A stretch of DNA of 64,000 nucleotides from Xylographa opegraphella (Eukaryota), in NCBI GenBank assembly GCA_022813865.1, contig JALDZX010000012.1, forward strand, positions 186,001 to 250,000. The letters run 5' to 3'. Shown here piece after piece: positions 20,124-54,838 of this stretch; position 1 is the stretch's first letter; the number at the start of each line of letters is the position of its first letter. Both the position numbers and the translations under genes were made by a program. A model generated the notes under the pieces. The model worked only from the letters and a program-made list of their open reading frames with translations. It was not told the origin of the DNA and did no database searches.

Positions 20124-20547
20124 TGATAATGTATCTAATGGGGGGTGACAAGGCAGGATGCTGGATCTCAAAGTAATAACATAAGTCTGGCGGACAGCGA
20201 AGTGATATGAGGGAAAGTAATATTCAAGGTAGACCCGTACTGTGGTAGGTTTCACATCGTTATGATTCAAGTTCAGTGATTCACATTGTTGACCAACTAT
20301 CAAGCTGGATTGGCAGCTCCGACGTGATATTCATGGGTATCTTAAACCTCTGGAATATTTCCGCCAATCCGTAAGACTAAAATATGATTACAGTTCTTAG
20401 GGATACTTCTTCAATCTATCACGAGGTTCACTTTGTTTCTTGTTGACCTTTATTGACACCAACCTCATAAACCGAAGGTTCAGTGCCAGTACTTTTCTCT
20501 TTCATCCAACATCTTGTTGGTTGGTCTAATAACTAAACAATCAATAG

Positions 20548-33592: not shown

Positions 33593-34561
33593 AGATTGTT
33601 GTTTTTACTTCATCGCCTTTCAAGCTTTCACCGCAACATCGTAGATGTGTCGAGAGACTCTTTTCGATCAAGATCCCAGTTCACGTGTGGATGGTATTCT
33701 GACAGCTCGTGAGCCGGTGCCTTGACAGCATCCCGCTCCGCGATTCATTGTGCGTTGGACGCTGTCGTTGTTACGATTATCTGGATGGTCTCGTCACGGT
33801 GTGCTGTAGCAGTGCTCGAGGCGCTTGCATTCAACAGAAGGGTACGTCGTCCTACGGGTCCGTGGTGGCTCGAACGCGGGCCCAACTGTAGTGCGTAGAT
33901 GTATATAGCCACAAGATGAAGCATGCACTCTGCTTCATAGCGTCATTCTTTCTGGACCCGACTGCGAGGTAGATAGACGGTCAAGGCCTCCCAGGCAGCA
34001 GCTTAGTCGAATCCGGGTTCTCAAACTGCTGCTGCATGGAAATTGAGTATCTCGTGGGCTGAGCCAGGTGTGATGCAAGGTACACACCACACGCCCCAAT
34101 AATGCGTATTGGGGTCGCGGAGGCAGCTTTGCCCGAAGGCCTAGTCTGCTGGCGGCCAACATGGCCAGTCGAGACGGCGCCAGCCGCTGCTTCATTGGAA
34201 CTTCTGACGCCGTGCCTGCGATATTCGGTGCAGGTGGTGCGAGTGGCGGTACCTGCAGTGGTGGTATCAGAGTTGGACGCGGGATCGATGGTTATAATTC
34301 CTATTTCCCATTCTTTCACACGAGGGTGAAAAGTAGTGTTTACTTACCGCAGACGGGGAACGGGATTTGGAGGGAAAGGATTATCTTACTCAAACGAAGG
34401 ATTCGACCAAAACCAATCGATTTCGCTCCGTGGTTCGTTAAAATTCATGAAATCCCCTATCCAAGACCCATCAGGAAAAGCAAAAAATACAAAACGAAGA
34501 CCAAAAGCATCCTGCCTACCCCTCCCCCTCCCGCAACTACAAACCACCAACCCCCCCCCCC

Positions 34562-34693
34562 NNNNNNNNNNNNNNNNNNNNNNNNNNNNNNNNNNNNNNN
34601 NNNNNNNNNNNNNNNNNNNNNNNNNNNNNNNNNNNNNNNNNNNNNNNNNNNNNNNNNNNNNNNNNNNNNNNNNNNNNNNNNNNNNNNNNNNNN
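34562..34693. other. Assembly gap (run of N) flanked by poly-C and poly-G tracts
   Basis: Ns from 34562 to 34693. Confidence 0.99.
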
Positions 34694-35223
34694 GGGGGTT
34701 AGTGGTTGGTTGTTTGGTGGGGGGGGGGGGAATGGGGGAGGGAGTGGATGAGGAGGATGTATTTGTGAGATGTTGGGAAAGGGGGAAGGGGAGGAGGTTG
34801 TGAGCAAAGTGAGAGAACCAGCCAGGACGTGCTGGCGGGGGACACAGGAGGGAAGGAAACTCTCCCACGCCGCTTCCAGCAAAGCCAGCCGCACCGCATC
34901 CCCCCCCCCCCACCAACGAGAGTGGCGAACGAAGAAACACAAAGGGACGAAAGGAAGAGAGGGAGAGAAAGAGAAAACCCAATCCACGAACCCTTAACCG
35001 TATACGACGTCTTATTCTCCCCGAACCACTGCAAGTACTTGTCCTCGATCCAAGGCATATCTGTTTTCCACACAACAACATCATCAATCAGCCTCTCGTT
35101 TGCCCCAATCTCCCCATCCCCACCCCCCCAAATACACAACACAAACACCCGCCAAGGAACTAGACAGGGCAACAACTCACAGTACGTATAGTTCTCATTA
35201 TACTTCTTCCTCGTCCACTCCAT
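34694..35223 (-). CDS. Small conserved fungal hypothetical protein, 3' part probably in the gap
   Basis: MEWTRKKYNENY|..MPWIEDKYLQWFGENKTSYTVK resembles a widespread small ascomycete protein; a branch-point-like CTAAC lies just before the gap on the minus strand. Confidence 0.6.
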
Positions 35224-35943
35224 CGTGAAAAGGTGCGTCGAGATCGTAGACCGGACCCTTCCCCCGAATTCCCCAAGAATTTTCCCCAAGAAGTGAGTGG
35301 GGTTTTTCGAAGAATGTAAGAAGAATGCGCCCCCCCTCTTCCCTAAATAAGATCTCAAACACTCCGGCAACTTTCGCTCGCAGACACGCACGGTATAGGA
35401 TTCGGTGACAATGGTAGTTTCGTGCAGCTCTTCAGAAAGCCCTAGCTCAAACACACAGACACGAAAATAAGGTAGATATTCACAATCTTTCAAAAAACCG
35501 TGAAGCGCCCACGAAAAGCAGCGAAGGCGGACAACTTAACTTAACATCCACATCCACATGCCCTACCAGTCTACATATAATAATCCTGTAAAATCACCCG
35601 CCTACCGTATCGGGCATGACGTAGCCCCTTCCCCTCCTAGCGCCCATCTGCGCCCGGTTTTCCCCCCGACTCGCGCAGGGGGCTCTGGTCCGTTCCTTGT
35701 TTTTGGAGGCGCGGCTGACCGGGGTGCGCCACACGCATGGGGGATTTGGTGCGGCTGGTGGGCTGCTGTCATGGGAGAGGCGGGTTATGGTACAGGAGGG
35801 AGTGTGATCTTTTCTACACGAGGGGAGGAGCTAAAGGAGTGAGAAGTTTGGGGGGGGGGAGGGGATGGTTTGTGTGTTCTACGTAGGCGGGTGGGAGAGG
35901 GGGATGGGAGGTTTTGTTGGGGGCGATGATACCGGTATGGGGA

Positions 35944-36016
35944 GGTGATGGTGGTGGTGGTGGTGGTGATGGTGGTGGTGGTGGTGGTGGTGGTGGTGGT
36001 GGTGGTGGTGGTGGTG
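35944..36016 (+). repeat. (GGT)n microsatellite with GAT interruptions
   Basis: Directly visible tandem GGT run of about 70 bp. Confidence 0.95.
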
Positions 36017-36331
36017 TGAAACATACAGCAATGGTCAGAGTTCAACGGAAAGCGTGACCAGCACCTGGGATCACCCCCGTCCTGGAGAAATGCTGCCCAA
36101 CGCTCATTCGATTCATCCGCTCTCCGAGCTCTCCGCTACAATGCGTCCATGCCCCCTCTCTGCAAGTGACTACCTTCGTCACCCGTCCTTTGTGACGATA
36201 GCAGAGCACGCACAGTGCGATCATGAGTCTACGCTCTTCGCTCCCGGGAACCAAGATAATCGAGCAACATACGCGAGACCCAAAACTCGAACGCCCAGGC
36301 CATCAATGCCCCGATCCACCTGGGGGAGAAA

Positions 36332-37455
36332 TCAATAATGATGTCCGGCCTTGCGCGGACACATGAAGAACTCCTGGATCGGCCCGCCGAAGAGGGCGGT
36401 GTCGTTGAAGTAGGCGCTGTTGTAGTCGATGGTGCTGCAGAAGCCGCCGCCCGTGGGGCCGACGTGTGGGCAATGGACCTAGACGGCGATTTGTTTAGTA
36501 GGGGAGGACTTCGGTACATTGGTCGGGCCGTGCCTGAGAAGAGCAACGGTACTCACGTCGGGATCGATCAGGGTCAAAATCACGTGGATGCTCCGGCACA
36601 CGACGTCGTCGCCCCAGGCCTCATCATAGGATCCAAAGGGCTTCGCTGTGAGCACGGAGATACAGTCCGCCACGCTGCTGTACTGGGTGTTGGCGCCGAC
36701 GCAGCGCTGCTGCACATTGTTGCAGATGTTCTCGATGAAAACAGGCTGCACAGCAGGGGCGGTCACGTCCGCGCCCTGGCCGATGATGGTCCAGTTCGCG
36801 AGGTTGGGAATCCAGGCGTCGTATTTCAGAACAAGGCCGTTGTCGTCGAAATTCCAGTTGGCGACCTGATGGAGGATAAGTGTTAGTGTAACGCGAAATC
36901 AAGGTCACCGAAGGATAACAGTGAGACGAAAAGAGTTGCAACAGCAGTGTTAAATCAGATTTAAAAACCTCGATGGTGTCAATGGAACGTTGATTTGACG
37001 TGAAAGTGATGGCGCACCTGCTTGAGTGTAGCAATGAATTTTCCGTCATCCGGTTGACCAGGACTATAGGTACTGCAGACCAGATACACGACCGACGAGG
37101 CAACATGGGGGCATCCAGAGTTATACTCTACAATCTCCGCCTTGCTGATGGTAACATTGGTGGGAGGACCTGGCAGAGGTGCCAGGCCGAAGAAGTATTC
37201 AATCGATTCGTTGAAACCGGTAAAAACACCGACCGGATCAATGCGGCCCGTTGCGGCTTCGTTGAACAGGCCGGCGGGCACAGCACTCGCGCCATGTAGA
37301 ATTATGGGGACGTTGTTGGGATACACGGTCAAGTTGTAGATGCTCTGGATCGTTCGCAGATTGCGGTCGACATAATTCTCTCGTGAAGAAGCTACAGCCT
37401 GTGACGAAGCAAAAAGAAGCGAGCACAGAGCGAACGGCCAATTGAGTGAATACAT
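36332..37455 (-). CDS. Secreted cysteine-containing protein of a conserved fungal family (possibly NTF2/SnoaL-like fold)
   Basis: Signal peptide MYSLNWPFALCSLLFASSQA; RNLRTIQSIYNLTVYPNN, ATGRIDPVG.F.GF.ESIEYFFGLAP, KQ|VANWNFDDNG..KYDAWIPNL, KPFGSYDEAWGDDVVCRSIH, VHCPHVGPTGGG; two introns; stop at 36332-36334. Confidence 0.8.
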
Positions 37456-38799
37456 CGCCACAGTGGATGGGCAGGTGCCGAGGTGAGATCTGCGAAAGAA
37501 AGAAAAGGGTTTCTCGCAGTCAGAATCTGCTGCGGAGGAGCAGCTATTGCAGTAGATTCTTATGTGTAAGAAGAAAGGAAGAGCGTGGGACGAGAGAACC
37601 GAAAGACCAAGTGAGTGGTGTCAGCACTCATCCTCTTCAGGTGTTGTTCAAGATGGACCAGAGAGTCTCGACATCGAGCCTAACAGCTGTGTTATACATC
37701 TCACAAGGAGCGGACTGGAACCTCGTGATAGCACTGCCATCGACACCTTCCCATTCGGCGTGCATCTCACCCGTACCTGACAAAGGAACAGTGTTACATG
37801 CCGATGTAAAAGCACCTGTCAAAGGGAGGGTGAGGACCGAAGTGTAAATGGAGGGAAAGGGGCCGATCTGCTGCACGGAACAATCGACTATTTCCATTGT
37901 GGTGAATTTGCTTCGCTTGCGGCTGTATCAGCTCCAGTTAGACAGCACCTGCCCCTCACGCTCCTCCCTGTGGCATGCTCGTATTCTCGTCGACCTTTTA
38001 CCCTCCCTCAACGCTTGCAAAGGTCCCTTGATCCTGCTGGTGTCACAAGACCCACTGTCCAATAACGTCACATCACCTTCCAGAGATGCGGTTGGCTGCC
38101 GCGAGGATGACCGGCGTCATGAGGTGTAGGCATGGCCTTACTCACATATGACCTGGGGGAATTAGCTAAGGAAAGAGTACAACCCATCGCGACAGGTGCA
38201 AGGTCGGTATGCCCGTTAATCATCGCACAACGTTCATCTGCTCCGATGATCTAGCCGGGCACTTCGGCCATGGCGCTGAGCGGCTGGGTGACAAGAAGTA
38301 CCTCGAGAACTCTGCATCGGCATGTAGTTTTCGGAACGCGGGGCGCAAAGGTGTAGGTCGTGATACTCAACCTCCCCCCTTCAGTCTCGGGCTTTCAACT
38401 TCGACCAGCTGGTCGTGGTGATGGACACGGCATAGAAAGCTGAAGCGGGAGCTAGATCTGACTTTCGTGCGCTAACTGTACAAGGCTTCTGACATGAAAT
38501 CAGGGGGATGGGGTTTAATGATCAACGAGTACGGTATACGAGTTAAAGGCATGTGCCTACATGCTTCAGCGGCTGGTTGTCACGATCACGTTTGTTCGAG
38601 TCATATGTAGATATGTGTTTGCAGTCATATATTACTAATGCAATCCCTCCACCAAAAGTCGTGCAACATTAAGAGCAGTAGATACAATCTTTGAAATTAT
38701 GAAAGACGTCAATAGTTGATATGGTACCCGTAACTGCCCACCAATCATGTCCTGGCAAGCGACGATGCCATCAAGGCGGGCATCCACATCCAGCATTAC

Positions 38800-41363
38800 C
38801 TAGTATCTCTTGGCGGCAGGAGAGCTTGACGGACTCGGCGTGCTGGAAAGGGGGGACGAAGACGGCGAGGGCGACAGAGTTGGCTTCTTCTTCTTCGTCT
38901 TCGTCATAGAGGGACTAGGGGTCTTCCTGACGGGGGCTGCAGACGAGGTTGATGGAACGGGTGTCTTCTTCGGCTGCTTGACTGGCGAGGTCGACGGACT
39001 CGGCGTCTTCTTTGCATGTACAGCTGAAGACGTCGAAGGTTTGGGTGTCTTCTTTGGCTTCTTCACAGGGGATGTGGACGGACCCGGTGTCTTCGTTGCT
39101 TGTACGACTGGAGACGTCGAGGATTTGGGTGTCTTCTTCGGCTTCTTGACAGGGGACGTTGACGGACTCGGCGTCTTCTTTGCCTTCACAGGAGATGACG
39201 TAGGAGTGGGGTAAGGTGTCTTGCCAGGCTGCTTGATCGGCGAAGTAGACGCGCTCGGGGTCTTCTTCGGTTTCTTGAGCGGCGAGCTGGACGGCGAGGG
39301 CGTCTTCTTAGCATGAGCACGTGACGGAGTGGATGGCGTTGGGGTCTTGGTGCCCTTGACCGGCGAGGTCGTGAAGCTTGGGGTCTGGTGAACTTTTGCG
39401 GCGCTTGTGGGCTTGGTAGTTGCAGTGCTCTTCAGCGTGGATTTGACAGGTGCTGAAGAAGTTGAAGAAACCACTGTTGGTGCAGGTGGCGCGGCGCAAG
39501 TCGCCTTCGACGCTGCCCCATAGTTCGTTCCCACCGGGCATGATATTGCGTTGCATGACGGGGCAAGTGCGGCATCAGGCACGAAAACACTAACGATCGG
39601 AGTTTGCCCAAGCATATTCCCAAGGTCATCGTAAGCAATGGCGTACGCAAACAGGTTGAAAGGAGCCATTGTGAAGGTCTCAAATGTGCCGTTATTGACC
39701 GCAGTGGCTGCCAGGGCAAAGGTCCCGTTCTCTGAGCTGCTAGTGAAGTATTTCCACGAGACAACCTCTGTGGCGCCGTTCCAACTTGCGTAGAAAGCAG
39801 CCGGAGCAGTGCAGTTTTGTGCGTAACCGAACAGGGCTATTTCAGTGATTGGGGGTTTTCCGACCCACTCATACTTGAAAGCACGATATGATTGTAAAGG
39901 CAAGACGCCCCAGTTCGCATAGAAGACTGTTGTACCATCCGAAGTCTGTTCGTAAACATAGGGATAACTGCCGAGTCCCATGAAATGATTGCCATTTGGT
40001 AGAAACTGATGACTTCCCTGACTGCTGTCAAGTTGGCGGTCTGGCGAAATGTACTGCTCAATTAGGGTAGCCTTGTTTGTGCCATTTGAGGTTGATATGG
40101 TAACCGACTTTCCAGAAGAGGCGGAAGAGGAGGAGGGAATATCGTTGTCGTTAGCATTGTCCCACAAGGAAATCCCGTTGATAGACGGTCTGAATCGTGC
40201 ATGGTGTTGGAAGGAGAAGTTTCTGTTCACGACTAAGTCAGCAGGAGGTCTCCGAATAAGGCATGGAATATACTAACAAGTTGGGCGTACCCGGGACCGT
40301 CGAATCCATTACAGGAAAGCTGCTGCGCTTGCCACCCAATCGCCAGATAATTGTACCTGGAGCCATACCCTCAGTGTTTTTGTTTCCGGCAATTTTGAAT
40401 ATGGTGGAAGTGTGTCGAGACGAGACTAGATAGTCACCATTCTCGTCCTTATCTATTGCATTAATATGGCTGAATGTACAGAATCAGTGCCTCATTCCCA
40501 CGGAGTCAAGAGACAGGTGACTTACAAAAAATCAAATCCATCACCGATGTTCTTACCTGTGCCAACATTATTATCACCAGGGCATACATATGTGTCCGTT
40601 GGATCAACATGGTCGATCGCATTCCACTGGAACAAAGTAGTATTCAAGCCATCGGTAGATACTTCCGTGAACAGTCCAGTCTTGGTGAAGGGCGTCGTTG
40701 GTGATCCTGGGCACGCCGGGTAGGTGACGTTATGGGCGAAGTTCACGTAGCTGGTCAGGAGTGCGCTGGCACCTGCCGTACCTAAGACATTGAACTCGTG
40801 GAGATCTTGGGTAAGGTTCTGGCCAGCAAATGCTCCACTCGGCGCAACGGCCACAACTTGTGTATAGGTATGATCCATGATCACAGAGTATGATCCCAAG
40901 CCTCCTGGACCACCTCCCACTGGGCCAGTAAATTGTGTGAAACAGAGATGAGGAGTCCCTTTATAGTAGCAGACTTTCTCGTCAAAGGGGCCTAGTCCTG
41001 GGGCCAGATAGTGCTGGCCACTCCATACAAGGTGCTAGCAATAGTCAGTAAACATTCGAATACCAAAATATCAGAGTGCCCACGCCGAGATTGTTGTAGA
41101 TATATGGTGCAGTTTGAAAGTTGGTGGTTCCAGGACTGCTTGGAGTTATCATAATGTAACCAGGAGCCAGGAGGGCCGGTTCTGATTTGGTGACATAAAG
41201 GGTCGGTGCTTGTAGATCCGGCCTCTGTATGCTGTTTGAGTATCCCCTCGTCGGTCTCCAGCTTCGATTAACTTACTGATAACAGGTTCAGAAGTGTAAC
41301 ATTCTGGGCATTGGACAAGGCGAAGCTTATTAACAGCAACGCGACAGCACGTATTCCAGGCAT
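38800..41363 (-). CDS. Secreted arylsulfotransferase (ASST, Arylsulfotran_2 family) with a C-terminal Lys/Pro/Ser/Thr repeat tail
   Basis: Signal peptide MPGIRAVALLLISFALSNA; RPDLQAP, PYIYNN.G|LVWSG, DLHEF, DF|HINAIDKDENGDYLVSSRHTSTIFKI, IIWRLGG, FSFQHHARF, WDN, SSQGSHQ.LPNGN, SYRAFKYEWVGKP, YASWNGATEV..W; four introns. Confidence 0.9.
38885..39395 (-). repeat. Coding minisatellite: about 12 degenerate 42-bp (14-aa) units, consensus KKTPSPSTSPVKKP
   Basis: Recurring GGTGTCTTCTT / GGCGTCTTCTT on the + strand at about 42-bp spacing, within the last ASST exon. Confidence 0.9.
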
Positions 41364-43538
41364 AGCGATCGAGCTGGGTGGGCACTTGGCAAGTCTGCCA
41401 ACAAGAGTTCTCTCAAGAAATTAAGATATAAAAGAATGGAGCCTCAACGTCCTGAACGACGTTGGCAAGCGACTGAATAGAAAAGAATGTGTATGTTCAC
41501 AGACATGGAGGGAGGGCGTGGCCTTTGAGTACAGAAGGCTGAAGTAATGCTGCCTCTTGTTCAGTGTTGGAGCTGCCTCTTTCAAGCCATACCCGTCCAC
41601 CAACGAATCCGAGCGTAGTGACGAGGATTGGGGAGCTCGGAAGACAGATAGCGCAAGAGCCGAAGGAACGGAGCTCGATGAGACACAAACTGGAGGGTGA
41701 CATGCTTGCTCTGTATGGTATGCAGGATTACCAGAAGGGAGATTGTGATGATGGTCGTGGCTCCGGTGGGGAGGAGCCACAAAGGGTAGGAGAAACATTT
41801 CGACCCAGTAGCTGCACCGCACGCGTGAAAGAGAGGTAAAAGCAGCATGGAGATTCTCAAATAATCAGCGCCGGCCGCGCTAATGCTAGTTTGCCGTGCT
41901 AGTCGCCCCGGAAGCGAGTGGGCTAGCTCCGCGTATTCTGACCTCAACTCCCCGAACGTTACATTTCTGTAGAGGAATAGGAGAGCAGGCGCCTATCAGT
42001 ACCAGACAAGGGCGGAATTACCAATCCTATGCCAGAGCGCTCTTGATCTAATGAGAGCCCCAGACGAGCGAGACATTTAGATATCCATCCTTCATTACAA
42101 AGCCACACCGTACTCTGTTTCTTAAGTTTGTTTCAGGATGAGTCGCCAAGAAATCGGTATCGTGTTTGTGATAGCTGCAAACATCGATGACCGAGAAATG
42201 GCATACCTTGACACACTGAATAGAACCGAATGGGTAGACTTTTTGAGCTACCACAATATTCGGGAAGTGGTCGCATCCAACTTATCCCCCGGTCACGAGT
42301 TGGGGGGTCAATCGATGTATGATCGAAGAACGTGAAATATAACTTACAGATACCTTACTCTTTCCAGCTATCGCGTTGAACTCACCTCACATGCAGTCAT
42401 CGTCATTCCGTCCAATAATCGAGCCGGACCATCACAGATCTGCAGGAACGCAGCCGCACCATTCGCTTTCACTTCTGATTCGATCGTAGGCTTACAGGGG
42501 GTTACAATGGCCCTAGCGCGGAGTAACCACGATCTGGCAGCCCACACAACCCCTGCCAAGGCTAAGAGATTAACGGTTGTCTCTGCTTTAGTCCTGTGTG
42601 CTATCCGGCAACTTTTCAGTACGCCATCCCGGGCCCGGCTGATCAGCGGAACTAACCTTATAGTATTCTCCTTTCAACGGGGCCCGGCCCATACCTTATT
42701 CTGAGCCACCCGCCGAGCCTAAAGCCACTTTGTTTTCCGCTCACCAGAATCTTGCACACTCCCTTGTGATTCGCGATAGCGATCGTCCTGATCCTTTTTT
42801 GTTTGTAAGCTCGCCGGAAATGATCACTCGCGGTGATGCTAGCCGGATGTGACAGCTCGCCCCGTCTCCTGGCTCGACGGGTCTTGTCCTTATCTTCAGG
42901 TACAAGAGTATGTGTGTAGAGCTAGAATGTTCGGAGGGGCGGGGGGGGAGGGCCAACACACGGAGGGCGGCCGGTGTGCTACCTACCTATGGTTCGCGGG
43001 CTGTGATCTACCTTGGCTACCTACGCTATCAGGCGCCCAGCGCGCTTTATCAGGATCTAGGCAAAGCTTGAACTTGAGAGCCGGATCGAGGCGTACGGTA
43101 GCGCGAACTGGGAATGGTGTCCGGGCCGCTGGATTGCAAAGCCGTGCCGTGAGGCCTGTGCTAGGCCTCAGCCTGATAAGAAGTCCGGTGACGTGAAGGC
43201 CCCCGGTCGTTCATAGTTCGTGCCGAAGGGGTTCGAGGGAGGAGGAGGACGACGAATGGAGGAAAAAGCAAATGGAAATAGGCGAGAAGAGGCGAAGGCG
43301 CTCCACGGAAAGGTTCGGTGTGTTTGGTAGTGGGAGGAAGGTCATACGAGTGGTTAGTAGGATGAAGTGGAGGGAGTGTGTGTGATCATAGACCGTACAA
43401 CATCTTGGCAGGGCCGTAGTACCGGCATCACTATAGTATACGAACGAGTGGTTATTGGAATAGACAAGCAGATTATAGACTATCGTTATGTGAGGCTGTA
43501 TATGCAATCGGTCTCGCGCTTCACCCAACGAGGATCAA

Positions 43539-45242
43539 TTAGTCTCCTTCGTCCACCTCAACATCGGGTGGGTTGTTTTCTTCGTTGGGCTCCCCATCAT
43601 TATCACCGGGTAGGCTCTCTGGTGGCTCATCATCACTCGGCGGCCGATATGCGTCTGCTCTCCTTTGATCACTCTCGCGTTCCTCGATCCCCAACACTTG
43701 GAAGAGTCGTTCCGCCCCAAACTTGTTCACATACGCAATCTCCTCGTCGTCCGTCATCATCTCAATCTGCGTCAAAGGTTCATTGTGCCACACGTAATGG
43801 CAATCCTGAACTTGATGTCGACCGCACAGTGGCTCGAGGTCTCGAATATTCCCGATGATTTGGTCCAAGAATTCGGATTCGCCGGCGAAGTCGTTATGCT
43901 TCCAGAACATAGGACCGGCGACGGCAGTGCCAAGAAGCGAGCTGTTGAAAGAAAAGCCTCCGAAATCAAATGCGTACTTGCGCCACTGCCAGAGCGATTC
44001 TGATTCCACAATTTCCCCCAGCTCGTCCACCACGGGTGCTTCCCACGCGTCCGCGCCGAGGTTACCCACAGGCACGATTCCAATCCGATCGACTTTGATG
44101 AGAAGACTCATCAGGTCAGGCAGCATCTTGTTATCGTCGTCAAGTCCGTAGACAGGGCCAGGGCCCAGTAGTCCACCGCGCTCTTCAGGCCGACTTAAAG
44201 CGTACACAACTTGCATGACCGCATTTTTCTGGGCGTTACCCCACGAACGTGTGAGCCCATACGCAAAGTAAATATACGGCACTCCTGTTCTCCTTAGAGT
44301 CCGGACCACCAGCGGGTCGATGTCGACTTCGTCCTCGGCGACGATCCATACTACCTGCCAGCCGGGATGTTTGTTCCGCACCAAAGCTTCCTCTTGTGCC
44401 ATCCAGGTTCTGATGGCACGGCCGCTGCGGCGAAAGTATTGCGGACGGATCGTACCAGCTTTACCGTTAGGCGAGGTGGCGGTGGTCAGATATATGGTCG
44501 GCTTGCCAAATTCTAAACCACCAAGAGACCACGACATCATCTCCCCTAGATTGCTGCCCGAACGACGCACTAGCTTCAGTGCCTGATAAGGATCAAGGTG
44601 CTGGCGGGCACAATAGATGTCGAGAATGGTCTGACGCATGAATTCATTCATGTCAACACTGTCTGGACCTGGATAGATGTCTTTTATATGTGGCCGTGGC
44701 GGCAACTCTGAGGCGTAATTGACCGAGGGCGCGTAAAAGGCAGGTGAGGCATGACAATCGCAAATGGAACAGAGATTACTAGGAAGGGCACTTTGAAGAC
44801 TCAAAGGAAATGCGCCGGGGCCGGCTTCGTTGTTTTTGTATAAGTCGGAGAAGTAGGGTTCGTGATGATCTCGATGAGCAGCCGCGATGTTTCCGATGCG
44901 GCGGTGAGTTGTATGAATATGTGCTGCACTGAAGTAATTGTACGATACGAGGAGTATCCCCAGTACTGCAGTTGCAATGAGGTAACGGCGAGTTCGGTGT
45001 CGGTTATATGTTACCGGCATCGGCAAAGGGAATTTCTCTCTGTTCTGCATGCCTGAGTAACTGGAGTAATCCGAAAAGGAGTAATCATCGTCGTCGTCGA
45101 AGTCTCTCTTTGACCTCCGTGGGGTGTCGACGGACATGGGACGTGATACATCACTCGCGGTATCAGAGGTGTCGCTGCGCGCCAGTCTGTCTTTCATCAG
45201 GCTTTGACGTTCGCTGTTACGCTGTGGGAAAGCTCCCTGCAT
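43539..45242 (-). CDS. Glycosyltransferase family 43 (GlcAT-I/IRX9-IRX14-like), type II membrane protein
   Basis: Single uninterrupted ORF; TM helix YLIATAVLGILLVSYNYF; PTIYLTTAT, WIVAED, LRRTGVPY, AQKNA, GPVYGLDDDN (GT43 DDDN), VPVG..G...EAP, RKYAFDFGGFSFN, ESEFL, LEPL, YVWH. Confidence 0.85.
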   Translation of the reverse strand: MQGAFPQRNSERQSLMKDRLARSDTSDTASDVSRPMSVDTPRRSKRDFDDDDDYSFSDYSSYSGMQNREKFPLPMPVTYNRHRTRRYLIATAVLGILLVSYNYFSAAHIHTTHRRIGNIAAAHRDHHEPYFSDLYKNNEAGPGAFPLSLQSALPSNLCSICDCHASPAFYAPSVNYASELPPRPHIKDIYPGPDSVDMNEFMRQTILDIYCARQHLDPYQALKLVRRSGSNLGEMMSWSLGGLEFGKPTIYLTTATSPNGKAGTIRPQYFRRSGRAIRTWMAQEEALVRNKHPGWQVVWIVAEDEVDIDPLVVRTLRRTGVPYIYFAYGLTRSWGNAQKNAVMQVVYALSRPEERGGLLGPGPVYGLDDDNKMLPDLMSLLIKVDRIGIVPVGNLGADAWEAPVVDELGEIVESESLWQWRKYAFDFGGFSFNSSLLGTAVAGPMFWKHNDFAGESEFLDQIIGNIRDLEPLCGRHQVQDCHYVWHNEPLTQIEMMTDDEEIAYVNKFGAERLFQVLGIEERESDQRRADAYRPPSDDEPPESLPGDNDGEPNEENNPPDVEVDEGD

Positions 45243-46871
45243 AATGCTCTTTTCTTCCAGACTCTGTGATCTTGCGGGATGGGCAAAGAAGAGTGCAAAG
45301 AGAGTATGAACCGGTGAACCTAAGATGCCACAAATCTGCGAAGGGTTGAAGATGGAGTTGAAGATGTCATGGAGCACTACCTAGTTTCTCCAAATGCGGC
45401 CCCCCACCCGCAGTGACTCAACTTTACTTCAATGGGGCAGGTCGTCCTGGTATTTTATTACAGGGTTCGTGATGCACTCTCCTACATAGTCCATCAGCAC
45501 ATGCAGGAGCGCCACAACTCAGTCCTTGCGATAGCAGCCAGGGCTGACTCGGGCACTTTGGACGACGATCTCTTGTCCGGGGTGGTAGGACACAGCGTGT
45601 GTCGAGTGAGACAGCAGACAGCGTAGATTGTGGATTCCATGTTCAGAGGAACAATCGAGCCGAGCACCGTGGAGCAGAAGGTTGCACTCGGGCACCTTGT
45701 ATCTGCACGACGTTTCGTCTACGGAGTCCTAATGGAGCCCTAGTGACGCCGGGCCTAGCGTGGCCCCTTTAAGGTGGGTAAGGTAAGGTAGGATGTGATT
45801 TGAGGTTCATGAAAGGGGCTTTCCGGACGAGATGCTGCTTGTGGCGCCCGACCGCCCCGGGGAGCAGCACTGGCAATCTCCTGGAGATAAGCCGTTCCAG
45901 CTCCTGTACGGGGCCAGAGCTTTTTGTTCTAGAATCAGCGCTAACAGCGTCAAAGCTTGCGGTGACCTGCATTAGTCTCGTTCTAGCAATGGCCCGAAGT
46001 CGCGGCGTCCAAAAGAGGCTTAGATCGGACAATCCTGGTCTAGCTCCGGAAGCTTTCCTCCAAGTCTCAACCCATCTCAGCTTTCACCTCCATCGCTGTC
46101 AACCACCCACCATCCTCCGGCCTCTCCTCCCACTACCTTACCTTATGAACAATCTCCGCCTGTTCCTTGCACAGCCGATATCTTTGCTTCTTATCGTCCT
46201 TTTGGAGAGCCTGTGCAATGTTACCCTCCCTAGTGCTTGTTCCTTCTCGGTGGAAATGGTTCGTGCGGTGGTTAAAGCAGCGAGATGCAGCGCTCTACCG
46301 TGCTGTTTCAGCTCAAGCAGCCACGCTGCTTGGCTTCTTTGCTGCCAATCGTCATTTCCTATCTCCTGGTCATTCCCGTTGCTGCGGGGTGTCGTGTGGA
46401 GTTGCGGCGAATCTCCTCGTACAGAGAATCATGGGTCATTGAGGCAGGTCCTGACGAATGTCCCCTCGCTTTCCGTCGCTCACCGTCTGCCTGTCTTTCT
46501 TATCTTCCTGTCTCTGTTCTTGAACTTCCACTTAGTCTCTAGTCTTTGCCGCTTCTATGTCTCTGAGCTGGTCTTTGCGATTCTTAATACCCCCTCCCGG
46601 ACTGATCACACCTCAAGTCGAACCCATCTTGACAGTCGAGGTCCTCCTCTTTCATTTACCTTTCTCCATCTCATCAACAAACTTGGTGAAGAGCGGGTTT
46701 CTGTAACTAGGATATCAACCACTTCGGCTCAGCTACATCCGCTAGGACCGCGTCTTGTCCCAAAGAATCATACCTCTACGCCAAATTCTATTTCCAGTAA
46801 GTCTCTGTTCGCATCGTATACAAACAAGAACCAAAAACTGACCAAAACGAAGCCATTTCTTACTGCTCACT

Positions 46872-49136
46872 ATGCACGCATTGATTCATCGTCGTATCGT
46901 AGTGCCTGCTGTCCTGGTCGTAATCCTCACCATCATCTTCATCTCGTCTCTTCCGAGCTTAAACGACTTCCACTTCGGTAGACTACAGGCTACTAATGGC
47001 GTCAGTGCCAAGGCGGCCGCGGCCGCAGCGGAGAGTGTGGAACAGAGCGCCGACATGGTATACCCTCTTTTCGACTACACCTACGACAAAATCTTCAAAT
47101 TATCTGCGGAAAAGCAGGTATCAAAGGACCCTTGCATCGATGTCGCGCTTCCCAATGGCGGTAATGTCGCCAAACCCGGTGATGGCATACGAGTGCTTAT
47201 AACTGGTGGTGCCGGCTTCATTGGGTCCAATTTGGTAGACCGCCTTCTGCAGCTAGGCTACAAGGTCCGGATATTCGATAATCTGTATACCGGGTTTCTT
47301 CGTAATGTGCCTATCGACCATGAAAATGTCGAATTCTTTCTGGGCGATATTCTCGACAAGGACGCCATAAGTGCCGCCCTCGAGGGTATCGACTTTGTCT
47401 ACCATTTGGCTGCTATGAGCAAGGTAGTGCCATCTCTTAAATCTCCAGCAATGGCTCGCTTCTGCACTGAGTCAAATGCTCTTGGCTCATGGAACGTACT
47501 AGACGCAGTACGTGAGCAAGGTGGTGTACAGAAGGTCATATACGCTGCTTCCTCCACTTACTATGGGAACAAGCCTGCACCACACAGAGAAGACATGGCC
47601 CCAGACTTCTTGACACCTTATGCGGCCAGTAAATACGAGGGCGAGCTCCAGATGCAGATGTTCGACAGATTGTTCGGAGTACCCACAATTTCAACGCGGT
47701 TCTTTATGGTTTACGGGCCTCGTCAACCAAGCACAGGAGCCTATGCGATCGTCACTGGCGTCTTTGCTAAGCAGGCATCTGAGGGCAAACCGCTTACCAT
47801 CGAAGGAGACGGCTCTCACTACAGAGACTTCATCCACGTTCACGATATTGTAGAAGGCCTCATTCTCTCTCAGCAAAATCCTGACCTCAGGGGAGATGTT
47901 GTCAATCTTGGTTCAGGTTCCGCCTTTTCCGTACAGGATGTGGCAAACCTGGTTTCCTCAAGCCAAGTTCATGTTGAACCACGAGCGAATGACCTAGAAG
48001 GCACATTAGCTAATACTTGCAAAATGAAGCGGTCGCTTGGCTACAAAGCTAAGAAGGACTTTAAGGTCGAAATGGCGTTCATGGCGAGAGAAACAATGGA
48101 AGGCAATGTATTCATGCAACCTTGGCTCACTCCGATCCATGCATTATCAGCGCCACACCTTCTGGCACCTGGAAGCCCAATGTTTAGATGGCCAGGCCAG
48201 ACCTCCGATCTTGATGCATTACTTCTGGCTTTAAAACATGTCGAAGAGAAAGCTCTGAGAGAAGGTGAATCAGTGAGCCGCCGTGTCAGCCTCATCATGT
48301 TTGTTCTTACCAGCAACGAAACAGAGCAAGCAAGCGATCTTCTTCTGAATACTGTATTCTCTCTCGTTCGCTTCGGTGGTGTCAGATCATACATCGTCGC
48401 AGCTAAGGACGAGGAAGCCTTATCAATATGTGTGGCTCTAAATCTGCCGTGCTACGATGCCCGGAATCAGTCGCAGCCGGCCCTCGTCTCGAGTTTGATC
48501 TCCAGCAGTTACGATGTACACGTCGTGAAGCTTGGGAATGCCTATATCAGCAACGTCGAATCTACTCTTGCGGCATTCATTTCGGAGAATGCCAACGCAG
48601 ATGTTGTTGGGGCAAAACCTTATGGTGACGCGTTCATACGGTCCAACGATCGAACTAAGGCTGCTTTTACGTTATGGGCCAGGTCTGCTGCTTCTCCCGC
48701 CCAGTACGAGGATGGGGGCGAAATCCTCTTCGATATTGACAACTGGCCGGCGCTAGACCTCACGAAAGCCAGCTTTACCGTCGACCGTCACTGTGGCTCA
48801 TCATGGCTTGATACAGCCACTATAACACAAACCGTAACAAGCCAAACGGCCAGTCCTACGTTGCTGGTACGCGGTCCAGATAGTTCATCGCTCGCGTCTT
48901 CTTCTCCGCCGTCGCCAAGCAGCTTTACTTGTGGTAAAAATTTCTACAGAGCTGTCGGTTGCGCCAAGGGGGCCAAACCTGAAAGTCCGAACGAGACGAT
49001 AACACAGCTTCAGTCGATTGGAGCGTGGCATCTGACTCAATGTCAAGATAGCGAACACTGTGATCGGCAGCAGGTCGTACCGTTGAGATGGGTTAGCCAC
49101 CCTCCAGACCTAGCGCCTTATGGCGGTATCTGCTAG
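46872..49136 (+). CDS. Membrane-anchored NAD-dependent UDP-sugar 4-epimerase (extended SDR, WbpP-like) fused to a degenerate nucleotide-diphospho-sugar transferase (GT77-like) domain
   Basis: Single 754-aa ORF; N-terminal signal anchor; TGGAGFIG, DNLYTG, HLAA, YAASSTYYG, PYAASK (YxxxK), RFFMVYGPRQ..GAYA, GDGSHYRDFIHV; C-terminal LLLNTVFSLVRFGGVRSYIVAAKDEEALSICVALNLPCYD. Confidence 0.85.
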   Translation: MHALIHRRIVVPAVLVVILTIIFISSLPSLNDFHFGRLQATNGVSAKAAAAAAESVEQSADMVYPLFDYTYDKIFKLSAEKQVSKDPCIDVALPNGGNVAKPGDGIRVLITGGAGFIGSNLVDRLLQLGYKVRIFDNLYTGFLRNVPIDHENVEFFLGDILDKDAISAALEGIDFVYHLAAMSKVVPSLKSPAMARFCTESNALGSWNVLDAVREQGGVQKVIYAASSTYYGNKPAPHREDMAPDFLTPYAASKYEGELQMQMFDRLFGVPTISTRFFMVYGPRQPSTGAYAIVTGVFAKQASEGKPLTIEGDGSHYRDFIHVHDIVEGLILSQQNPDLRGDVVNLGSGSAFSVQDVANLVSSSQVHVEPRANDLEGTLANTCKMKRSLGYKAKKDFKVEMAFMARETMEGNVFMQPWLTPIHALSAPHLLAPGSPMFRWPGQTSDLDALLLALKHVEEKALREGESVSRRVSLIMFVLTSNETEQASDLLLNTVFSLVRFGGVRSYIVAAKDEEALSICVALNLPCYDARNQSQPALVSSLISSSYDVHVVKLGNAYISNVESTLAAFISENANADVVGAKPYGDAFIRSNDRTKAAFTLWARSAASPAQYEDGGEILFDIDNWPALDLTKASFTVDRHCGSSWLDTATITQTVTSQTASPTLLVRGPDSSSLASSSPPSPSSFTCGKNFYRAVGCAKGAKPESPNETITQLQSIGAWHLTQCQDSEHCDRQQVVPLRWVSHPPDLAPYGGIC

Positions 49137-49751
49137 ATTTGCGGTAAACTTGAGCATGCATTGGGGGAAAGTGGCGTTATGGAGGAATCTTGTCGGCATA
49201 GGGGCCTGTTCTGCGAAACACTACTCTCGCAAATTCTGAACCTCTTCCAGTTCGATAATGATCCTACGGCCTAGTTAAATTTGAGGAGCTTGAGGCCTTA
49301 GAATAACTGTAGTATGAAGAAAGTAAATAGAAGAATAGTCTACATTTTCTCGACAATTGCAGTCGTTGAATTATAAAGACTAAAGAGCTAAGCTCCCAAA
49401 TCCCGACTATTTTACCCTTCCGCAACATACGGCTATCTCTTGAATCTGTTCTCGAAATCGTACAGGATCTCCTAATCGATGGAGAGCTCTCGCTTATTCC
49501 TACCACTTTCCCGCCCGTGTAGGTGTGCAATTGACTGGCTCAGATGAATCCGGCGATTTGGGCCTGAAATGGCAGCTGCTGGCCGCGTCGCAAGTATGTG
49601 CCTCCATTCATCCATCGCTCATCATTTTACGACCTCGCAAGGCAAATACAAAAGAACATCATCGTAACATGGCAAGTCGGGGTGGCTGGTTCTCGTTGTC
49701 GTGAGCTTGAGTGGTGGCCACTGGAGACCTCACCCTCGTCGTCGTCCCGCA

Positions 49752-52026
49752 ATGTCAGGGTACGCAATGGAAAGACTCGATAGCCATGGAAATCATTCAG
49801 CGGGTATAAGCAAGGTAATATAGTCATGTTTCATTTCTCTTTCGTACACTGCTCGAACGACTGTGGCTTGTATCGGCTATCTCATTGATGTCTTTTATGT
49901 CTGTTTTGTACTTCCCTTCCTTGTCAATTCTGCGAGAGTTGCGTGCACCTCAGCGGACGTCGGCTCCGGTTATGTTGTGAGGCTGAAATATGACTCTGGT
50001 CTATCATTGCATCCCCAAAATCCTGAAAAATCAAGATATACTGCTTTGCATACTGACCTTCTATCAGGAGCCTCGACCTGCTGGCAGGCGGCTCAGACGA
50101 CGTCCATTCAAAGTAGTACTAGCAGTTATCGTCACAACCATTGTCATTGTCGCACTTATCCTTGGCCTCTACTTTGGTCTTCATAATCGGAGTTCGAGCA
50201 TTCCCTCATCTCCAGAGTCTCCCGCTTCTCCTTCCTCCGCTCCTTCAGCTGCCCCTTCGAGTTCTCCAATCCCAAGTGGCTCCAGCAACCCGCCTGCTAC
50301 TCTCCTGGCTTCCGCCCCGGCAAGTAGTTTCCCTCCGATCCAAGAATCTTTCGTGAGCTTTGCCGTCGAGTTCTACTTCTTCCCTGATTTCTCAGGTCAG
50401 TCTCTGTGGCTGAGGAAGCACTCGTTGCCTTTACTGATGAATCCTCTTAGGAAACCTCGCCTCACCAAATACGTTCTCGGATAACCTCCTTAACAATATT
50501 GGCAACATCAGTGGCACGAAGCCATATATCCGCGTGGGTGGTAATACTCAAGACCTTGCAATATACGATGCAGCTCTGCCCGTTGCCACCCAAGCGACGT
50601 ATATTAACGGGCATCCTGGAGATATTTCAATCGGACCCTCTTTCTTTGAAGGATACAGCTCTTTCCCAGGCTCGAAATTCATACATGGACTCAATCTGAA
50701 GAATGCTACCAACTCAGCCATAGGCTGGAAGTCGTTGGCCGATGAGACATCGGTAGCTTGCAAGGCGTTGGACGGGAAACTTGTATGGTGGGAGTATGGC
50801 AATGAGCCAGACGTGTATCCGAGATCACCTTCCACATGGAACGCTGCAACATATGTGGACGATTGGCACAATGGAACTGCTGCCATCCAGCAACAACTGA
50901 GCAGCTCATGCCCTGATATGTCATCTGGGAGCCACTATGGCTTTGTTGGGCCTTCACTTCTCGGAACGAGCGGGCTTCCTCCGGTGCAGCTGTTCAAGAG
51001 TGGGCTGAACGATAACGGCGAGGTCAAGCAGTATACCATGCATCAGTAAGTAGTCTGAATCTCAGTCCCGGCCTGCTTTCTCTTCAGTACCACTGAGACA
51101 CAATTCGAACTAACATTATTGAAAAACATAGTTACATGGGGAGCGCTACAGACAGTGCCACTCTACAATCCAGTCTTATGAACCACACAGCCGTCACGAC
51201 CAAACTAGCCTCCATCGTCACAGAGATATCCAATCTCAACAACCCTTCCCTCATCAACCCTACCAGTACGTCCCACTCACCCATCACACCCCGCTCTGTC
51301 CGATCCGTCTCACTAATTCCCTCAGACGCGGCACAAAACTCCATCCCATTCACTCTCGACGAAGCCAACAGCCTCCTCAACGGCGCCCCCGCCGGGCTCG
51401 ACATCCTCTCAGTCTTCGGCTCCGCGCTCTGGACGGTCGACTACATGCTCTACTGCGCCTCCATCGGCCTGTCGCGCGTGCACATGCAGCAAGGGACCGG
51501 CTTCCTCTACAACAGCTGGCAGCCCGTCGCCGTGCCGGCCAAGAACATGGACATCGCCACCTCCCCGCCCTACTACGGCAACGTCGCCGTCGCCGCCATG
51601 CTGGGCGACCTCACCAAAGCCATCCCACAGATCTTCAACGTCCCCCTGCCCGGAATGGGCGACTACGCGAGCGCGTATGCGGCGTATGTCGACGGCACCA
51701 GCCTGGTGCGAATCGCCGTCGTGGATCTTCGCGCGTACAACGCCTCCTCGGGAGTGCCGCGGCCGAGCAGTACCTACACCTTCGTCCTGCCCAGCGCGTT
51801 GGCCATCCCCGACGGCCGCGAGGTGCGCGTACAGCGCCTCTTGGCCGCGGGGAGCGATGTCCGCACCGGCATCACGTGGGACGGCTGGAGTTATGCGTAC
51901 GAGCTGGATGGCGGCCGGCCGGTGTGTATGGCGAATGTGACGGTGGGGGAGACGGTCGTGGTCGGTGGTGGGCGGGTCGCTGTCGATCTGGTGCGGAGCA
52001 GTGTGGCTGTTTTGAGCTTTTCGTGA
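49752..52026 (+). CDS. Glycoside hydrolase family 79 (beta-glucuronidase/heparanase-like), type II membrane-anchored
   Basis: Probable exon 1 at 49752-49814; exon from 50068 with RRLRRR + TM helix + Ser/Pro stalk; SFAVEF, IRVGGNTQD, WEYGNEPD (acid/base), LDEANS (nucleophile), FGSALWTVDY, MQQG, PYYG; several introns. Confidence 0.9.
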
Positions 52027-52930: not shown

Positions 52931-54838
52931 TCACCTCACGACATCCTGCTCCCGCACCACGTCCTGGCCCCGTAGGAACGTCACATGCTCGTGCCTGGCG
53001 GCCTGCCCGCGGTAATGCTTCCTTCCCCTCGCGAACCAGTCGACCGCGATGATGGACGCTACCACGCCGTAGACGGCGGAGACGTAGTTCATATCTGGAT
53101 CATCAGCAAGCCTACGGGAGGGAGGGTGCGGGGGATTGGCTCACTGTTTGGTAGTACGGGTTGCACAGAGGGGAAACTGTACATGATGAAGGTGAACACC
53201 GTCCAGGTAAGAAGGACGCAGTTCGAGACGAGGCCGGCGGGGCCCATCCAGAAAGGGCCGTGCACGATGTTGTCACGGCCGCGAATGAGGAGGCAGGTTA
53301 CTGGGATTGCGTACGAGATATATAGCAGCACGATGCAGCCGGTGACCATACTAGAGGAATTTGAGTGTCAGCATTTGATCTAAAGTTCTCCATATTATCC
53401 GAGGAATGGTTTCGTCCGGCTGGGAAACAATAGGCAAGAACAGAGTTCATATAATCAAGTCAAGAATATCGGCTAGATGAATGAGGAGCATAAAGCGGCA
53501 TTTTGCTGGAATTTTGAACGCTTGAGGATAGATTACTTCAAGAGCGAAATCATGATTCAGCTCACCTGTTGAAAGCCGTATACGATCCCAGGTACAGGCA
53601 GCCTAAAGCCCCTACAATTACACAGCTCACAAAATGAGCCTGGACTGGGACGTCCAATTTTGGATGCACATGGCTCAGAAATCCTGCGAATGGCACACCC
53701 CTATCTCGGGCAAAGCTCCAGCATAGTCTAGATTGCCAAGTATGGCTGGCAATCAGACATCCGACTCCTGTTGCAATAATCATAGTCTCCAGAAAGATGG
53801 CACCTGCAGTGTTACTAAGAGCTTGGTAATACAGTTGAAGAATTGGTACACCTGTCAAAGTATTGAACAAGTCCTCCAGACTTTGCATGCTGAAGAACAT
53901 GGAGACCGAATAGAACCAAGCCGTGACGAATCCAATGGCTACTGTCCCCATGATTGCAATTGGTATCATCTTCTCAGGTTTGTGTACTTCTTCTGCCATA
54001 TGTGTCGCGCAGTCTAGACAAGCGAAGGCGTAGTTTGTGTTTATGAGGCCAACGATGAAGGCAATACCATTTGAGGCCCAGCCGGTATTGTTGACAAAGT
54101 TAGCAAACACAAATACCGCATCTTGATGCGTCGGAGCTCGTGCTGGAACGACGATGAGAGTTACAAAAAAGGATATCAATGAAGTGTACAGAGCCACGGT
54201 TGCCACGGTCGGAAGAATTCTTCCATAGCAATTAAACACAAAAGCAAAAGCATTGATGACTTGGTAGGCAACTACCAAATGCCAAGGCTGAATGACGCTG
54301 GAGAATATCAGTATACTGAACTCGCACGGTTCCAGAAGGCATACAAATCTGGATGCGCCAGCTGATAACAACCCACAGCAGCACTCGCGGTCCCCAAAGC
54401 CACACTTGCTGACGTGAACATACTCCCGGCCCAGGCAACCCATCCAGTCAAATAAGACGCGAAATTGGCGTACTTCCGAGGTGCCAGCTCGTTGGCCCAA
54501 AAGTATTGTCCTCCAGCATTGGGAAAAGCACTCGCGAGTTCGGATAACGAGATTCCCACGCATATCGAGATCAAGCACATGAGGATAAGGCCATAGATAA
54601 TAAGAACAGGACCTCCAGAGTTGATGCCCGTAACGAGCGCAGCCGAAATTCCCCACCATGAATTAGTGAGGGAGAAGCCAATCCCGAGGACTGACCAGAC
54701 GGAGAAATTCCTCTTTAGGTCTTGCTGATAGCCCATTTCAGCTAACTTCAAAGCATCGGCATCTATTGACTTGAGCTCTGCCATATTGTCGTCGGAGACG
54801 CTCCGCTCGATAGTCATATCGTTCTTCTCGTCTGCCAT
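52931..54838 (-). CDS. Amino acid/choline permease (APC superfamily, Hnm1-like)
   Basis: LAEMGYQQDLKRNFS, NSGGP, ELASAFPNAGGQYFW, CLDCATHMAEE, SRLCWSFARDRG, SYTAFN|SMVTG, MNYVS; three introns; stop at 52931-52933. Confidence 0.92.

Follow-up and report, generated by a model that had tools for sequence, protein, structure and literature searches.

We analysed a 64,000-nucleotide stretch of the genome of Xylographa opegraphella (Lecanoromycetes, Ostropomycetidae, Baeomycetales), referred to as the window throughout (assembly GCA_022813865.1, contig JALDZX010000012.1, positions 186,001 to 250,000 of the forward strand). Four adjacent genes at positions 38,800 to 52,026 of the window encode an arylsulfotransferase-like (ASST-like) protein, a GT43 glycosyltransferase, a fusion of a short-chain dehydrogenase/reductase (SDR) of the 4-epimerase kind with a GT77-like domain, and a GH79 glycoside hydrolase. 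Three of them (GT43, fusion and GH79) probably constitute a conserved secretory-pathway module for a glycan bearing glucuronic acid (GlcA) in this Xylographa-type lichen fungus. We regard the ASST-like gene as a neighbour and its connection with the module as unproven. The features of the locus, in window positions, are:

38800-41363, minus strand: ASST-like gene (PF14269), 782 amino acids (aa), five exons, spliced model
41363-41277, 41224-41084, 41034-40526, 40469-40291 and 40232-38803, minus strand: coding sequence of the ASST-like gene, the stop codon extending to 38800
38959-39195, minus strand: tandem repeat of 42/84 bp inside the ASST-like gene, coding for part of its basic tail (Tandem Repeats Finder, TRF)
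43539-45245, minus strand: GT43 gene, single exon, 568 aa (Pfam, PDB alignments, model)
45246-46871: divergent intergenic region common to the GT43 and fusion genes, 1626 bp between the start codons
46872-48077, plus strand: fusion gene, part 1, membrane anchor and lumenal SDR 4-epimerase domain
48072-49136, plus strand: fusion gene, part 2, GT77-like (PF03407-related) GT-A domain without the DXD motif, stop codon at 49134-49136
49752-52026, plus strand: GH79 gene, five exons, 606 aa
49752-49814, 50068-50395, 50451-51045, 51132-51265 and 51326-52023, plus strand: coding sequence of the GH79 gene, the stop codon extending to 52026

The fusion gene as a whole (46872-49136, plus strand) is a single exon encoding 754 aa. 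The families that a first-pass annotation of the window had assigned to the four genes were confirmed by hidden Markov model search (Pfam PF14269, PF03360, PF01370 and PF16862). Its statement that nothing recognisable lies between the genes also held, as ten open reading frames (ORFs) between them had no Pfam match at E<=0.1, apart from one at chance level, and a tRNA search of the gaps returned none. Secretory signals, taken as the maxima of 19-residue hydropathy windows, were present in all four products, in agreement with the one signal peptide and three anchors described before.

A divergent pair of GT43 and an epimerase fusion

PF03360 was detected in the GT43 gene at E 4.7e-20 (72.7 bits against a cut-off of 27, Pfam), with the catalytic domain and its DDD motif at aa 297-487. 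The hydropathy maximum (aa 89-107, 1.68) falls on a helix within residues 83-120 of the predicted structure, and the protein is laid out as a cytosolic N-terminus, a membrane helix, a conserved Cys-rich stem and the catalytic domain. Its sole PDB matches were human GlcAT-P and GlcAT-S (1v82, 2d0j; E 1.9e-10 and 1.3e-9), and both the 'DDDN' and the 'ES' glutamate of GlcAT-P are aligned in the fungal protein. Residues D369, D370, D371 and E456, the last being the glutamate of 'ES' and presumably the catalytic base, were invariant in 25 of 25 aligned homologues, and PF03360 was present in all of the 57 GT43 homologues (57/57). The protein shares with the animal GT43 enzymes (GlcAT-I/P/S; 1v82, 2d0j) the type II topology, the Pfam domain above threshold, the DDD motif and the 'ES' glutamate, but it is similar to them only at about 1e-10, carries about 250 extra N-terminal residues including the conserved Cys-rich stem, and is partnered with a lumenal epimerase fusion. 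By analogy with these relatives, the donor of the fungal enzyme would be uridine diphosphate (UDP)-GlcA.

Homologues of the GT43 protein with a named source belong to Lecanoromycetes (Lambiella, Agyrium, Diploschistes), Dothideomycetes (Pseudovirgaria, Elsinoe), Exophiala and a Xylariales species. In the only survey of non-plant, non-animal GT43 that we found, the fungal members are all from Pucciniomycotina, and about 400 genomes of other fungi had none (PMC4449007). The same survey places fungal GT43-like proteins, all of them basidiomycete sequences, in a cluster with animal GlcA transferases (PMC4449007). Judged by the homologues collected here, ascomycetes have a GT43 clade of their own, which comes with a constant partner gene and lies outside the fungal list of the published survey.

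This partner gene encodes a membrane anchor (aa 9-27, hydropathy 2.93) followed by an SDR domain, matched by PF01370 (Epimerase) at E 9.7e-50 over aa 108-347, with PDB matches reaching to about aa 402. The best of these were 6wjb/6wj9 (5.8e-52), presumably PelX, a UDP-N-acetylglucosamine (UDP-GlcNAc) 4-epimerase of the Pel biofilm polysaccharide pathway, and then WbpP (1sb8, 3.6e-41), in line with the WbpP-type epimerase of the first-pass annotation. UDP-GlcA 4-epimerases ranked lower (6zl6, 3.4e-32; 6kv9, 3e-29), and UDP-GlcA decarboxylases (UDP-xylose synthases, UXS) matched at about 1e-28. The motifs 'GGAGFIGS', 'AASSTYYG' and 'YAASK' (NAD glycine motif, Ser and Tyr-x-x-x-Lys) align to 6wjb and 1sb8 and are conserved in the 27 rows of our alignment A2. 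The Thr of 'EGTLAN' stands at the position of a WbpP Ser that we take to be the gatekeeper admitting N-acetylated sugars. An NCBIfam scan of the SDR returned no model at its cut-off, the top name being a dehydratase (140 vs 475). The absence of the dehydratase acid pair is the criterion that separates 4-epimerases from dehydratases. Assignment of the domain as a 4,6-dehydratase or a UDP-xylose synthase was rejected on the ranking of the PDB matches and the aligned motifs.

Going by these alignments, the SDR half belongs to the UDP-hexose/HexNAc 4-epimerases, nearest to the group of 6wjb/6wj9 and WbpP. These bacterial enzymes are its best sequence matches and have the same NAD and Ser...Tyr-x-x-x-Lys motifs as well as a small residue at the presumed gatekeeper site, whereas the enzyme of the window is eukaryotic and is predicted to be membrane-anchored, lumen-facing and fused to a GT-A domain.

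For the last 354 residues of the fusion, 49 relatives were found among 1.84 billion representatives, 15 of them at <=1e-10. A Pfam scan of 23 of the 49 detected PF03407 in 15 (14 stand-alone proteins and P0070, where it is a further domain); the other eight, which include close fusion-type relatives, P0082 and P0083, were without it. The window's domain itself scored 13.7 bits in a direct Pfam search, below the PF03407 cut-off of 22 (E 0.064), but profile comparison with 12 PF03407 proteins (hhalign) gave a probability of 99.9% and E 6.8e-34 over 241 columns, and the motifs 'N..[YF]SLV.FGGV..YIV' and 'LNLPC' are common to both. D196 and D198, which form the DXD motif and are invariant in those 12 proteins, are aligned to 'q-l-G' in the query profile, and D-x-D occurs at that position in none of the 27 rows of alignment A2, P0071 alone having a single Asp. 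The C-terminus of the GT77-like part bears a conserved Cys-rich motif. In an AlphaFold model (mean pLDDT 80) the domain adopts a GT-A fold, for which Foldseek returned weak matches to transferases of that fold, and PF03407 clusters made up 23 of 30 Atlas feature matches, which we regard as a lead only.

Judged from these profiles, the domain is a true PF03407 homologue by descent that fails the defining catalytic feature. It has the 241 homologous columns, the common motifs and the GT-A fold of GT77/PF03407 transferases, but differs from them in the DXD motif (12/12 in members, 0/27 in the family of the window's domain) and in a Pfam score under the cut-off. Because the DXD is missing, it is most likely a non-catalytic adaptor or acceptor-binding module and not a second transferase. 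The GT77-like label given to it at first therefore stands as far as homology by profile comparison is concerned, and falls short in the faint direct Pfam match and the missing motif, which also makes the previously suggested combination of donor supply and a second transfer by the fusion doubtful.

Evidence for a pairing of the two genes comes from several sources. Our metagenome comparison consisted of four short loci (L001-L004), of which L002 and L004 share 79% nucleotide identity and were counted as one lineage. In L002, whose GT43 has 57% identity, a full-length fusion gene is likewise arranged head to head with it, about 1.5 kb apart, the same layout as the 1626 bp between starts in the window. 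The divergent promoter region that had been described for GT43 and the epimerase is borne out. The best common word of the L002 and window intergenic regions was 13 bases long (E 0.03), which is at chance level. By a proxy for a shared contig, namely two homologues on contigs of equal size and thus not a direct observation, 20 of 49 fusion homologues sit together with one of the 57 GT43 homologues, and 13 of these 20 shared-size contigs measure 6.8-43 kb. In Diploschistes, GT43 and the fusion have consecutive locus tags (LQ340_005025 and LQ340_005026). Moreover, P0072 is a single chain of 1028 aa made up of epimerase, DXD-less domain and GT43, with 51% identity to the fusion (511 residues) and 34% identity to the GT43 of the window (179 residues). 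The epimerase and DXD-less unit is also joined to an intact PF03407 domain in P0070 (933 aa) and to GT90 in P0073 (999 aa). The divergent pairing of GT43 and the fusion is conserved and goes beyond chance.

GH79 as a linked, membrane-anchored hydrolase

The GH79 C-terminal domain (PF16862) was recognised at E 8.5e-20 (72 bits against a cut-off of 27, Pfam), and the protein is 84.5% identical, end to end, to a 606-aa protein of Xylographa carneopallida (P0155). It consists of a short cytosolic tail, a membrane anchor (aa 37-55, hydropathy 3.17), a Ser/Pro linker and the catalytic and C-terminal domains. Among solved structures it is closest to 7dfq (5e-18), a 4-O-alpha-L-rhamnosyl-beta-D-glucuronidase of Fusarium (FoBGlcA), with 'GNEP' aligned. 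The 'LDEANS' glutamate falls on 'LTETNS' in the beta-glucuronidase 3vny from Acidobacterium, beside which 5g0m served as a further PDB structure for comparison. The glutamates of 'GNEP' and 'LDEANS' are, we assume, the two catalytic residues of GH79. By this alignment the protein keeps both, and its predicted specificity is for beta-glucuronides. The C-terminal domain and both glutamate motifs are thus shared with the GH79 beta-glucuronidases (7dfq; AcGlcA79A, 3vny), but the window's enzyme has an N-terminal anchor and a Ser/Pro linker in place of a plain secretion signal. It also differs from 3vny by a Leu where that enzyme has a Tyr after the nucleophile motif, a residue to which a functional role is ascribed.

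In the NCBI annotation, the fusion and GH79 genes are merged into single models in X. opegraphella (P0108, 1250 aa) and X. trunciseda (P0114, 1249 aa). P0108 is identical to fusion residues 1-665 and matches the GH79 pieces at 99-100% in two of three, with 92.6% in the third, where its model skips an intron-like stretch. Both models omit the conserved last ~90 residues of the fusion and the first exon of GH79. A real chain of fusion and GH79 as in P0108 was rejected, given that it drops a stretch of ~90 residues with a motif kept in distant relatives. GH79 has its own start codon, and since its orthologues carry their own short tail and N-terminal membrane anchor, the merged models P0108 and P0114 are probably annotation artefacts.

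A search for GH79 homologues among proteins >541 aa gave 32 matches, the seven best of which (at least 50% identity) all belong to Ostropomycetidae. Five of these seven adjoin or are merged with the fusion gene, either as adjacent locus tags in Lambiella (MMC13_007994/007995), Trapelia (MMC30_005826/005825) and Agyrium (MMC25_001600/001601) or as the merged models of the two Xylographa species. These four genera span three orders of Ostropomycetidae, and the linkage of the fusion and GH79 is more than chance.

Several observations weigh against a conserved three-gene module acting on GlcA. Linkage of GH79 was seen within Ostropomycetidae only, and of the five GH79 matches on small contigs (2069, 7196, 9210, 17483 and 25989 bp) none lies on a contig of the size of one with a GT43 or fusion match. 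The hydrolase beside GT43 in L002/L004 is a GH51-like gene and not GH79:

L002:5867-6955 and L004:853-1872, both minus strand: GH51-like gene (PF06964 Alpha-L-AF_C, 2.5e-38), convergent with GT43

Different lineages may have different hydrolases as partners of GT43 and the fusion. The counts of shared contigs come from a proxy, and because P0108 is a merged model, P0072 and similar long chains (P0070, P0073) may likewise be merged neighbours, which would indicate adjacency and not fusion. Loss of the DXD is no proof that the GT77-like domain is inactive. Plant GT43 enzymes use UDP-xylose, and the three transferase partners of the epimerase (GT43, PF03407 and GT90) suit an epimerase that supplies whichever transferase it is joined to no less than one that provides the acceptor sugar.

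The main rival explanation builds on these last points: the epimerase would supply the donor of GT43, be it UDP-galacturonic acid (UDP-GalA), UDP-galactose (UDP-Gal), its N-acetylated form (UDP-GalNAc) or a pentose, the glycan would not be GlcA-based, and GH79 would be a lineage-specific add-on. The joining of the epimerase and DXD-less unit to GT43 (P0072), PF03407 (P0070) and GT90 (P0073) is what donor channelling predicts, the gene beside GT43 in L002/L004 is of the arabinofuranosidase type and not GH79, and plant GT43 includes transferases of sugars other than GlcA. However, GlcAT-P and GlcAT-S are the sole PDB matches of the window's GT43, and the SDR is closer to 6wjb and WbpP than to the UDP-GlcA 4-epimerases 6zl6 and 6kv9. 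The position of GH79 next to the fusion is retained in three orders and, to our knowledge, all GH79 activities are directed at beta-glucuronides. The grouping of fungal GT43-like proteins with animal GlcA transferases in the published survey, although based on basidiomycete sequences only, points the same way (PMC4449007). We regard a donor-supplying epimerase with a glycan free of GlcA as unlikely, and favour the module of GT43, fusion and GH79 acting on a GlcA-bearing glycan.

The ASST-like gene and the question of sulfation

In the ASST-like gene, PF14269 (Arylsulfotran_2) matched the last exon at E 3.3e-13 and a further exon at 2.5e-9 (50.1 and 37.4 bits against a cut-off of 27), and the Atlas features of the protein agree with this family. 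The gene model contains four GT-AG introns (52, 49, 56 and 58 nt) and one stop only. A signal-like N-terminal segment (hydropathy 1.64), taken as the signal peptide, is followed by the catalytic domain and a basic Ser/Thr/Pro/Lys-rich tail of ~250 aa. The final 310 aa comprise 44 K+R, 5 D+E, 100 S+T and 54 P, and the repeat in the tail has a period of 84 with 2.7 copies and 83% matches (TRF). Three exons match Streptomyces 9kf6/9kf4 (5.6e-21, 6e-5 and 0.0046), with His aligned to His at three sites ('DLHEF', 'SHINA' and 'FQHHA') and the Arg of 'SSR' aligned to that of 'SGR' in 9kf6.

According to a preprint, 9KF6 is a clade-14 enzyme on caprazamycin-type liponucleosides in which the three catalytic histidines are kept (bioRxiv 10.64898/2026.10.08.757629), and we infer from the alignment that the three histidines of the fungal protein correspond to these. 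Sugars figure among the acceptors of bacterial sulfotransferases of the ASST kind in the abstract of a review (PMC13426309). The ASST-like protein looks like a competent sulfotransferase independent of 3'-phosphoadenosine-5'-phosphosulfate (PAPS), for which acceptors of the sugar type would be possible, and its basic tail could hold it on an acidic polymer. It resembles the Streptomyces clade-14 enzyme 9KF6 in family (PF14269), in its three matching exons and in the three His and one Arg aligned, but it is fungal and secreted, bears the basic Ser/Thr/Pro/Lys tail of ~250 aa and has no donor-making genes nearby.

Membership of this gene in the module is unproven, as the adjacency was observed in one genome. 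The ASST-like gene stands beside the cluster in this genome only, L001-L004 gave no ASST match, and in L002/L004, the single other lineage with readable flanks, the GH51-like gene takes its place downstream of GT43. Among the Pfam matches of the window there was no sulfotransferase of the PAPS type, no genes making an aryl-sulfate donor were evident near the cluster, and the literature searched held no characterised fungal PF14269 protein. Furthermore, the sulfated polysaccharides so far reported for lichens come from the microalgal partner, if the title of a cited work is followed (PMC11625862, reference 23).

The first-pass annotation had read all four genes as one cluster whose product is a sulfated glycan similar to glycosaminoglycans (GAG) or HNK-1. 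Under such an explanation, the four genes would work on one GlcA-Gal(NAc) glycan with an active GT77-like transferase, PAPS-free sulfation by the ASST-like enzyme and trimming by GH79. The genes are indeed adjacent with nothing recognisable between them, and the match to 9kf6 includes three aligned histidines. The reported retention of catalytic histidines in 9KF6 together with its action on liponucleosides, the sugars among bacterial acceptors, and the secretion of a protein with a strongly basic tail able to bind an acidic polymer would all suit it. Against this stand the GT77-like domain without DXD, the adjacency of the ASST-like gene in this genome only, its lack of a match in L001-L004 with the GH51-like gene downstream of GT43 in a single lineage, the missing precedent among fungal PF14269 proteins in the literature searched, the algal origin of lichen sulfated polysaccharides suggested by the cited title, and an aryl-sulfate donor pathway that is not evident. 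We consider it very unlikely that all four genes serve one product. What endures of the proposed cluster is the unit of GT43, fusion and GH79, which are linked elsewhere too. A sulfated product lost ground with the absence of a PAPS-type sulfotransferase in the window and an ASST membership by adjacency alone, and a pathway of the GAG/HNK-1 type did so with the sole second GT-like domain lacking DXD and an ASST-like gene that is unlinked in L002/L004.

Genomic surroundings

A secondary-metabolite cluster lies upstream at about 10900-33600 and ends 5 kb from the ASST-like gene. Its members include:

10924-12183: cytochrome P450
16675-17439: SDR
18717-20330: alpha/beta hydrolase
26644 (KS domain) to ~33589: highly reducing polyketide synthase (HR-PKS), continuing with AT-DH-MT-ER-KR-ACP

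Other members are a fungal rhodopsin-domain protein, a 2-oxoglutarate-Fe(II) oxygenase and an FSH1 serine hydrolase. The interval that separates the PKS from the ASST-like gene contains four ORFs (200-280 aa, 34074-37620), which had no Pfam match at E<=1, bar one at chance level. Farther upstream, positions 6482-9859 of the minus strand encode a large NLR-like protein (NB-ARC/TPR) that has an alpha/beta-hydrolase domain at its N-terminus and is typical of fungal STAND immune-like receptors. Downstream of GH79 are an amino-acid permease (53565-54662, minus strand) and a Zn2Cys6 transcription factor (61774-62457, minus strand), and nothing ties either to the module.

This setting allows for an explanation in which only GT43 and the fusion are functionally tied, while GH79 forages on plant or algal glucuronides and the ASST-like enzyme tailors or detoxifies, possibly for the HR-PKS cluster 5 kb upstream. 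The PKS cluster at about 10-34 kb speaks for it, and fungal GH79 enzymes such as 7dfq, a glucuronidase by the name of its PDB entry, break down gum glycans of plants. GH79 linkage not being seen outside Ostropomycetidae also fits. The nearest solved relative of the ASST-like protein serves a secondary-metabolite pathway, according to the preprint (bioRxiv 10.64898/2026.10.08.757629). On the other hand, the adjacency of GH79 persists to 50% identity and in three orders, and its orthologues have a conserved N-terminal anchor and no cleavable signal, whereas foraging enzymes are not usually anchored. For the ASST-like protein, secretion and a mucin-like tail are predicted, and ~5 kb of ORFs without family match separate its gene from the PKS gene. 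It is highly improbable, in our view, that GH79 and the ASST-like gene are mere neighbours of a two-gene unit.

Proposed function and significance

For the three-gene module, we propose the following scheme, whose donors, acceptors, type of linkage and cellular site, as well as the part played by the DXD-less domain, are presumed. A lumen-facing 4-epimerase of the WbpP/6wjb kind would make a UDP-galacto sugar (UDP-Gal or UDP-GalNAc) on site, and the attached DXD-less GT77-like domain would tether or present the substrate. GT43 would then add a uronic acid, namely beta-GlcA onto an acceptor of the Gal/GalNAc type if it behaves like its animal relatives, and the membrane-anchored GH79 would trim or turn over the beta-glucuronide.

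The clustering of an epimerase with a transferase and hydrolases has a known counterpart in fungi. The galactosaminogalactan cluster of Aspergillus comprises a cytosolic epimerase, a transferase, a deacetylase and two hydrolases, with no uronic-acid enzymes. As in that cluster, a UDP-sugar 4-epimerase, a glycosyltransferase and a glycan hydrolase lie side by side in the window, but the families are others (GT43 and GH79) and the epimerase is lumenal and fused. The enzyme families and the logic of clustering epimerase, transferase and hydrolase are therefore known, whereas the GT43-fusion pairing and the cluster with GH79 are undescribed in the literature we searched. That search, which left most subscription journals outside, also found no described fungal cluster of this composition, as the first-pass annotation had supposed.

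A far-reaching version of the scheme seems quite unlikely to us, though it can be spelled out. Lichen-forming and some other ascomycetes would possess an undescribed acidic-glycan pathway in which the epimerase/pseudo-glycosyltransferase works in a complex with GT43, GlcA-Gal(NAc) units are placed on wall or matrix glycoconjugates and remodelled by GH79, and in Xylographa an extracellular ASST adds sulfate while its basic tail holds it on the polyanion. If true, this pathway would explain where the acidic polysaccharide in the extracellular matrix of lichens comes from, a source so far missing.

An acidic sugar of the cell surface that has not been described before is what the three linked genes point to, and the addition of sulfate to it is an unproven step. 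The recurrence of a presumed Golgi-lumenal epimerase with a DXD-less GT-A domain, joined to three transferase families, suggests a reusable cassette that would combine donor supply with an adaptor. In a paper on lichens, the acidic matrix polysaccharides of the thallus are called a black box, and lecanoromycetes are said to have genes for GlcA synthesis but to have yielded no isolated polysaccharide with GlcA (PMC8355462). The three-gene module offers a concrete candidate for the consumer of lecanoromycete UDP-GlcA.

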